The position numbers and the translations under genes are program-made. Source: Escherichia coli (GTDB taxonomy: Bacteria > Pseudomonadota > Gammaproteobacteria > Enterobacterales > Enterobacteriaceae). Taken from it: DNA of 64,000 nucleotides. Location: assembly GCF_003334785.1 (NCBI RefSeq), contig NZ_QOWV01000012.1; one strand, 5' to 3'. A model generated the notes under the pieces. It saw only the letters and a program-made list of their open reading frames with translations, was not told the DNA's origin and searched no databases. How positions within the stretch are numbered: the stretch's first letter is position 1; the number at the start of each line of letters is the position of its first letter. Of this stretch, positions 28,899 to 29,413 are shown one piece after another.

Positions 28899-28904
28899 TT
28901 TACC

Positions 28905-29413
28905 CTTCGTAGGCAGCATCCGGCAGTCGGCGCATAATGCCTGATGCGACGCTTAACGCGTCTTATCATGCCTACAGGTTTGTGCCGAACCGTAGGCCGG
29001 ATAAGGCGTTCACGCCGCATCCGGCAGTTGGCGCACAATGCCTGATGCGACGCTTGACGCGTCTTATCATGCCTACAGGTTTGTGCCGAACCGTAGGCCG
29101 GATAAGGCGTTTACGCCGCATCCGGCAGTTGGCGCACAATGCCTGATGCGACGCTTGTCGCGTCTTATCATGCCTACAAGTCTGTGCCGAACCGTAGGCC
29201 GGATAAGGCGTTCACGCCGCATCCGGCAGTCGGCGCATAATGCCTGATGCGACGCTTGTCGCGTCTTATCAGGCCTACAGGTTTGTGCCGAACCGTAGGC
29301 CGGATAAGGCGTTCACGCCGCATCCGGCAGTTGGCGCACAATGCCTGATGCGACGCTGGACGCGTCTTATCATGCCTACAAGTCTGTGCCGAACCGTAGG
29401 CCGCATCCGGCAT
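28905..29413. repeat. Tandem BIME/REP array, about five units of ~101 bp
   Basis: Unit GCCTGATGCGACGCTT..CGCGTCTTATCATGCCTACAGGTTTGTGCCGAACCGTAGGCCGGATAAGGCGTTCACGCCGCATCCGGCAGTTGGCGCACAATG repeats at about 28939, 29040, 29141, 29242, 29343; each unit holds two oppositely oriented palindromic units. Confidence 0.92.

Follow-up and report, generated by a model that had tools for sequence, protein, structure and literature searches.

What fills the interval between the genes yjjV and yjjW, and what it might do there, were the questions raised by one locus in a 64,000-nucleotide stretch of Escherichia coli DNA (the window; contig NZ_QOWV01000012.1 of assembly GCF_003334785.1). An initial annotation had described a tandem array of bacterial interspersed mosaic elements (BIMEs), with a ~101-bp unit repeated about five times with point differences only, that filled the whole space between the two convergent genes. 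Our analysis agreed with this description. The array, which consists of five 101-bp units at 28909..29412, is with essential certainty the 5-unit allele of the BIME-2 cluster catalogued in strain K-12 as REP352, a non-coding element between convergent yjjV and yjjW. The finding is real, already known and ordinary. The full explanation that we prefer adds to this identity the roles of an RNA 3'-end barrier or attenuator and of a gyrase site, and as a whole we consider it likely.

The repeat structure was demonstrated by two approaches. Tandem Repeats Finder (TRF) yielded a single array at 28916-29403 with a period of 101, 4.8 copies, 94% matches, 0% indels and a score of 878. The ~101-bp periodicity was also recovered by a repeat search, where 202-nt copies started 101, 101 and 101 nt apart and were 93-95% identical. 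In pairwise comparison, units were identical at 87-97 of 101 positions. The order of elements in register was Y (minus strand), a head-to-head linker, Z2 (plus strand) and a tail-to-tail linker, and each unit therefore held the two oppositely oriented repetitive extragenic palindromes (REPs) that had been claimed. The alternation of Y and Z2 palindromic units confirmed the assignment to BIMEs, and the tally was five Z2, four full Y and two truncated Y, one at each array end. Repeat material (28909-29412) accounted for 504 of the 516 nt between the two convergent genes (28899-29414), with 10 nt left over at the left and 2 nt at the right.

Palindromic units were typed against the Y, Z1 and Z2 consensus strings, and exact matches at other places in the window validated these strings. 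Z2 was typed by edit distance; a substitution-only consensus scan missed every Z2 of the array owing to the loop, which is 1 nt longer than in the commonest Z2 form elsewhere in the window. For all five Z2 units, the edit distance was 2-4 to the Z2 consensus, as against 8-10 to Y or Z1 (9-10 to Z1). The array begins with a truncated Y on the minus strand (GTAGGCAGCATCCGGCAG, 28909..28926) from which the inner ~18 nt are missing, followed by Z2 unit 1 on the plus strand (28939..28975; edit distance 4 to the Z2 consensus vs. 8-9 to Y and Z1) and by Y unit 1 on the minus strand (28992..29025), an exact match to the Y consensus. The same alternation of strands continues with Z2 unit 2 (29040..29076, +; edit distance 3 to Z2), Y unit 2 (29093..29126, -), with one mismatch to the Y consensus that lies in the loop, Z2 unit 3 (29141..29177, +; edit distance 3), Y unit 3 (29194..29227, -; exact match), Z2 unit 4 (29242..29278, +; edit distance 2), Y unit 4 (29295..29328, -; exact match) and Z2 unit 5 (29343..29379, +; edit distance 2). 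The array ends with the right truncated Y (GTAGGCCGCATCCGGCA, 29396..29412, -), also without its inner ~18 nt and located 2 nt from the yjjW stop codon.

The head-to-head linker was 13-14 nt long and occurred in two haplotypes, GTCGGCGCATAAT and GTTGGCGCACAAT, and the 16-nt tail-to-tail linker read either AGGTTTGTGCCGAACC or AAGTCTGTGCCGAACC. Differences between units were few and fell in the linkers, in the Z2 loop, at one stem-mismatch position of Z2 and in the Y loop; a like pattern of variation is seen in REPs genome-wide (bioRxiv 10.64898/2026.03.23.713779). GTAGG on one strand, and CCTAC on the other, was present in 9 of 9 full units and in both truncated units. No inverted repeat was reported by a search with a 9-nt exact seed. 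Because REP stems are imperfect, RNA folding was used for the palindromes. A sigma-70-like match at 28910-28938 (+; TAGGCA-17-CATAAT) was made up of the left truncated Y and the CATAAT linker haplotype, which recurs in unit 4; sigma-70-like matches in the region were at background, with 2 found vs. 1.4 expected.

BIME-2 elements are defined by z2 and y units in tandem copies, with short linkers and a unit number that differs among strains, while BIME-1 elements contain z1 and y in a single copy, with a long L linker that often carries a site for integration host factor (IHF) (PMC3333891). All the sequence-testable features of BIME-2 were found here, namely alternating Y and Z2, tandem copies, short linkers, the GTAG foot (GTAG/CTAC), amplification and a variable unit number, and nothing essential separates the array from that family in the Gilson/Bachellier classification (per PMC3333891). 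With BIME-1 (RIB/RIP), the array shares the palindromes of the REP superfamily and the Y unit, but it is tandem rather than single-copy, contains Z2 instead of Z1, and is without the IHF consensus and the long linker. The IHF consensus WATCAANNNNTTR had 0 matches in 28899-29414 and 3 matches in the whole window. The initial annotation had named such arrays as targets of both IHF and gyrase; the gyrase half holds at the level of the class, BIME-2 being the gyrase-associated one (PMC3333891, PMC6379681), whereas the IHF half is a BIME-1 trait that does not apply to this array. A likeness was also apparent to REPIN/RAYT systems, in which hairpin-forming REP doublets are mobilised by a REP-associated tyrosine transposase (RAYT), since each Y+Z2 doublet can form one long hairpin and the GTAG that the E. 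coli transposase TnpA-REP needs for binding (PMC3333891) is present in every unit; the difference is that no RAYT gene was found near the array or elsewhere in the window.

The corresponding cluster of K-12, REP352a-h (EcoCyc annotation, U00096.3), overlaps yjjV by 2 nt (bioRxiv 10.1101/2024.07.17.603846). Our alignment of K-12 MG1655 agreed with this: its 419-nt interval contained four Y and four Z2, 8 REPs in all, and yjjV stopped at a TAG inside the GTAGG foot of the first Y; the RefSeq record NC_000913.3 showed no REP features at the locus. The K-12 cluster and the window array are alike in locus, 101-bp Y/Z2 unit, right junction and orientation, and differ in size (four units in 419 nt vs. 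five units in 516 nt) and in the left junction, where a full Y supplies the yjjV stop in K-12 and a 10-nt spacer is followed by the truncated Y in the window. REP352 is one of eight REP clusters at which DNA was protected from exonuclease after stress, and the only one of the eight highlighted clusters that RAREFAN did not predict as a RAYT-associated REPIN (bioRxiv 10.1101/2024.07.17.603846).

To compare unit number among strains, the two flanks alone (600 nt per side) served as the query, which gave an unbiased systematic sample of 60 of 5,424 complete E. coli genomes. Five units were found in 18 of the 60, four in nine, three in six, two in 10, one in 14 and none in two (~3%), and in the remaining genome, that of strain N39, the flanks were split apart. 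Representative loci with 0, 1, 2, 3, 4 and 5 units differed in exact 101-bp steps. A synthetic 6-unit query matched two genomes in one piece, and strain NCTC11023, with 5.8 copies by TRF and a 617-nt interval, carries a verified 6-unit allele. The copy-number change expected of such arrays was thus observed, over the range of 0-6 units among 5,426 complete E. coli genomes. Across all 5,424 genomes, the flanks lay within 1.1 kb of each other in 5,393. Unit number was constant within clones among the sampled genomes (four in K-12/B laboratory strains, two in O157:H7, five in ST131); it is therefore a slowly changing polymorphism and not a rapidly switching locus. Changes in array size would arise by in-register unequal recombination or by replication slippage between units, and RAYT might help the array grow or shrink, with RAYT-catalysed recombination as an alternative (PMC3333891). 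The 0-unit allele retained one truncated Y in a 29-nt interval and is best explained by loss of the sequence that separates the truncated Y units of the two array ends. One match, H39, with 60% query coverage, was considered as an insertion sequence (IS) and rejected, being an ordinary 4-unit allele with one 100-nt unit whose pieces were not joined by BLAST.

The left junction was also polymorphic. In the window, O157:H7 and other strains, YjjV ends in ..FSVSG with its own TAG, followed by the 10-nt spacer and the truncated Y (783-nt coding sequence [CDS], as annotated in other strains with this junction). In K-12, strain 1579 and SK0832, the CDS enters a full Y, the GTAGG foot serves as the stop and the protein ends in ..FSVP (780-nt CDS). 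The two alleles were compared at window positions 28880-28930 and at the K-12 locus (L003, 1740-1790). The repeat therefore sets both the C-terminus of YjjV and how far the stop codon lies from the hairpin. The spacer itself (TTTACCCTTC, 28899..28908), which runs from the yjjV stop to the array and is not part of the repeat, was present too in the 0-unit allele of strain E300010.

The suggestion that BIME arrays are hotspots for IS insertion was borne out at this very locus. IS1397 (1,432 bp) was found in the array of four genomes by its yjjV-BIME-IS1397 junction, in four different unit loops and always in one orientation. The insertions lay in a Y loop in N39 (L010, 4351-6001; target duplication GTT), a Y loop in AR_0085 (L011, 2655-4604; CAC), a Z2 loop in JNE25-001 (L012, 2652-4402; GAC) and a Y loop in IAI39 (L013, 2652-4203; TT(T/C)A), i.e., three Y loops and one Z2 loop with target duplications of 3-4 bp. 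These are four independent events. Apart from these genomes, the flanks were more than 1.1 kb apart in ~27 others, for which different REP-targeting IS elements such as IS621, or rearrangements, may account. Specificity of IS1397 for the loops of palindromic units was described by Clement et al. (1999), as cited in PMC3333891. The downstream gene yjjI is annotated as a frameshifted pseudogene in AR_0085 and IAI39, which may be a coincidence or a sequencing error.

Other species were surveyed by scanning species-representative genomes for a YjjV motif (plain pattern) and then by tblastn, and the following holds among the matches listed. In Enterobacter, Lelliottia, Leclercia and Superficieibacter, yjjV and yjjW abut with a 0-6 nt gap and no REP. 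In several Citrobacter, 21-71 nt separated the genes, and a single Citrobacter-type palindromic unit was the most that this gap contained. E. albertii carried Y-linker-Z2-linker-Y in 153 nt, with full-length Y at both ends, and a divergent 'E. coli' species representative carried one unit in 113 nt. These comparisons indicate that a BIME-2 at this junction is older than the split of E. coli and E. albertii and that growth to 4-6 units took place within E. coli. The truncated end Y units are probably the derived form, because E. albertii and SK0832 carry full-length Y at the corresponding ends. An unrelated array was found at the same junction in Citrobacter youngae ATCC 29220 (L103, 6888-7363), with a period of 84, 5.7 copies and 96% identity, built of Y-like and Z1-like units in the orientation opposite to that of E. 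coli; another C. youngae strain (L082) had a junction of only 48 nt. In Pseudocitrobacter faecalis (L038, 1418-2862), ~1.4 kb including an apparent membrane-protein open reading frame (ORF) separates yjjV from yjjW, and thus the junction is not always tight outside Escherichia. A speculative idea, to which we give little credence, is that the junction may be selected for a long structured spacer, and not simply be permissive, and that it was filled independently in E. coli (101-bp units) and in C. youngae ATCC 29220 (84-bp units). The heritable unit number (0-6) could then act as a lineage-specific expression dial for yjjV and for the glycyl-radical enzyme genes yjjW-yjjI, with the left-junction alleles adding differences in C-terminus and stop-to-hairpin distance.

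The palindromes have strong folding potential as RNA. A single Y (Y unit 1) folded at -19.5 kcal/mol (z -4.36), a single Z2 (Z2 unit 1) at -14.7 kcal/mol (z -5.05), and a Y+Z2 doublet formed one long hairpin at -45.6 kcal/mol (z -5.6). Folds of the whole region had z = -11.7 and -10.7 vs. dinucleotide shuffles. The truncated units folded poorly, with a weak hairpin of -6.5 kcal/mol (z -1.3) for the right one on the yjjW side and z -0.17 for the left one on the yjjV side. A scan of both strands of 28899-29414 for intrinsic terminators found none, the hairpins being without T-runs. Four matches to the Rfam model RF02564 (naRNA4) were obtained on the plus strand, in the sense of yjjV, at 28995-29073, 29096-29174, 29197-29275 and 29298-29376, each covering a Y, a head-to-head linker and a Z2. 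Their scores were 74.2-83.7 bits vs. a gathering score of 59.5, and the minus strand scored 52.6-61.0 bits; the C. youngae ATCC 29220 array was below the naRNA4 gathering score. The same model also matched three other Y-Z2 pairs in the 64-kb window, at 21143, 42411 and 46807, and a match therefore identifies a BIME-2 doublet and no specific function.

The best-studied relative for comparison is REP325/naRNA4 (yjdM-yjdN), which has the same tandem Y-linker-Z2-spacer arrangement with a period of 100 (vs. 101 here) and 5.8 copies in K-12. It differs in its linker and spacer sequences and in that it sits between co-oriented genes of one operon, whereas the genes beside the yjjV/yjjW array converge and transcription reaches it from either end. 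Tests of HU binding and of processing have been confined to REP325, and the nucleoid role of REP325 is now disputed (bioRxiv 10.64898/2026.03.23.713779). The same study describes REP325 as a partly Rho-dependent attenuator and a stabiliser of upstream mRNA, and associates the presence of REPs between two convergent genes with a higher level of expression on both sides (bioRxiv 10.64898/2026.03.23.713779). By analogy, both converging transcripts at yjjV/yjjW would meet a series of stable hairpins without U-tracts, which probably act as 3'-exonuclease barriers and as partial, Rho-assisted attenuators. The 3' ends of both mRNAs would thereby be defined and protected, and less antisense transcription would run on into the opposite gene. 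On the DNA itself, gyrase probably binds and cleaves at the Y units; BIME-2 elements as a class show an enrichment of gyrase cleavage sites, most of which fall in y units (PMC6379681).

Several observations weigh against these roles. The minimum free energy structure of the whole array pairs distant units and is one of many near-equivalent structures, and the centroid of the minus strand falls to -30 kcal/mol. REP-terminated mRNAs show no global difference in half-life and a wide spread of effects (bioRxiv 10.64898/2026.03.23.713779), and any REP effect is therefore context-dependent. Natural 0-unit alleles exist in the sampled genomes and the genes abut in Enterobacter, Lelliottia and Leclercia among the matches listed above, so the array is dispensable. 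In addition, yjjV and yjjW were not found in those supplements of the gyrase map (PMC6379681) that were searched. Taken by itself, the functional part of the explanation (RNA barrier or attenuator plus gyrase site), which is argued from related elements, is favoured only slightly.

The array could also be a selfish or neutral repeat without host function at this site, where REP/BIME elements spread by RAYT, recombination or slippage wherever they are harmless and array length simply drifts. This is possible though rather doubtful, and it is compatible with the explanation that we prefer. It is consistent with the presence of all unit numbers from 0 to 6 among natural isolates, none of them being dominant, with the dispensability just described, with the tolerance of 1.4-kb IS1397 insertions and with the unrelated 84-bp array of C. 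youngae ATCC 29220, as would be expected of a permissive site. Drift alone fits less well with the retention of a BIME-2 here both in E. albertii and in almost all E. coli, with the confinement of variation inside the array to loops, linkers and one stem-mismatch position, by which hairpin potential is preserved, and with the experimental effect of the sister array REP325 on neighbouring transcripts. A different kind of host effect would be a brake on translation, in which ribosomes terminating at a stop codon are held up by a REP hairpin no more than ~15 nt away, so that less YjjV, less YjjW or less of both is made. The work on REPs near stop codons behind this model is reportedly that of Liang and Deutscher. 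The model appears as reference 62 in bioRxiv 10.1101/2024.07.17.603846, where REP352 is listed within the 15-nt limit; in K-12, a full Y overlaps the yjjV stop. The truncated Y units of the window are likewise close to the stop codons (10 nt for yjjV, 2 nt for yjjW), but as RNA they form weak structures that do not outdo those of shuffled sequences (z -0.17 beside yjjV, z -1.3 beside yjjW). The nearest full units are beyond the limit, 40 nt away on the yjjV side and 35 nt on the yjjW side. A brake of this kind may operate at the K-12 junction; the window allele suits it poorly, and we consider it improbable as the explanation of this array.

The naRNA4 matches raise the further idea that transcripts reading through from yjjV are cut into Y-linker-Z2 RNAs of ~77 nt, which bind HU, bridge cruciform DNA and condense the nucleoid. 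Four units match RF02564 at 74-84 bits in the sense of yjjV and the architecture is that of REP325, the only array for which a discrete ~77-nt HU-binding RNA, the basis of the original model, was shown (PMC4550694). The Rfam model is non-specific, as seen from the three further Y-Z2 pairs of the window, and deletion or overexpression of REP325 leaves nucleoid volume unchanged, Hi-C is without REP-REP contacts and no stable HU-DNA-naRNA4 ternary complex forms (bioRxiv 10.64898/2026.03.23.713779); the authors of that report include the senior author of the original naRNA4 study. Such a source of nucleoid-associated RNA is very unlikely here. Least credible of all is that the repeated ORFs of the array encode real small proteins. 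Near-identical ORFs of 33-114 amino acids (aa) occur on both strands, each starting at the ATG that successive units have in common, and exact copies of one 69-aa product (28937-29143, +; units 1-2) have been deposited in public protein sets from 49 contigs as 'hypothetical protein'. The 90% cluster of this ORF in UniRef has 69 members, some of them named 'Mannitol-1-phosphate 5-dehydrogenase' or 'Putative cytosolic protein'. These ORFs recur only because the same ATG repeats in each unit. A period of 101 leaves a remainder of 2 when divided by 3 and places successive units in different frames, the ORFs lie on both strands, their number and ends shift with unit number, 100-nt units occur, no RefSeq CDS was present at the site in any genome inspected, and the database names are either 'hypothetical protein' or evident mis-transfers. 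The array ORFs were therefore rejected as genes, in line with the family of false ORFs noted initially, and the 69-aa database entries are annotation artefacts of REP translation.

The flanking genes were named from E. coli FORC 064 (NZ_CP022664.1), which is 100% identical over window positions 28400-29900. The gene yjjV (metal-dependent hydrolase) occupies 28116..28898 on the plus strand with a TAG stop at 28896-28898, and yjjW (glycyl-radical enzyme activase) occupies 29415..30278 on the minus strand with a TGA stop at 29415-29417. Other REP/BIME loci in the window were three doublets (21140-21284, 42408-42557 and 46804-46949), a Z2...Y pair (60936-61040) and a lone Z1 (32852-32880). A match to the Rfam small RNA model ES036 (CssrF) at 60964-61006 (-), with 38.8 vs. 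a gathering score of 37.6 bits, fell in the Z2-Y linker of the BIME at 60936-61040. A tRNA gene was found at 20912-20995 (-) and the threonine operon leader at 55562-55681 (+; 122 bits); the latter shows that the window spans the point from which the E. coli chromosome map is conventionally numbered.

By itself, the array matters little; descriptions of REP/BIME-2 arrays go back to the 1980s-90s, and the present one has its entry as REP352. Its spurious ORFs, in turn, sit in public protein sets, even under a mis-transferred enzyme name. For E. coli, the locus represents a clean, lineage-stable length polymorphism (0-6 x 101 bp) that could serve as a typing marker, and it offers a natural allelic series for testing, between convergent genes, the model in which REPs act as terminator or stabiliser dials of the 3' untranslated region.

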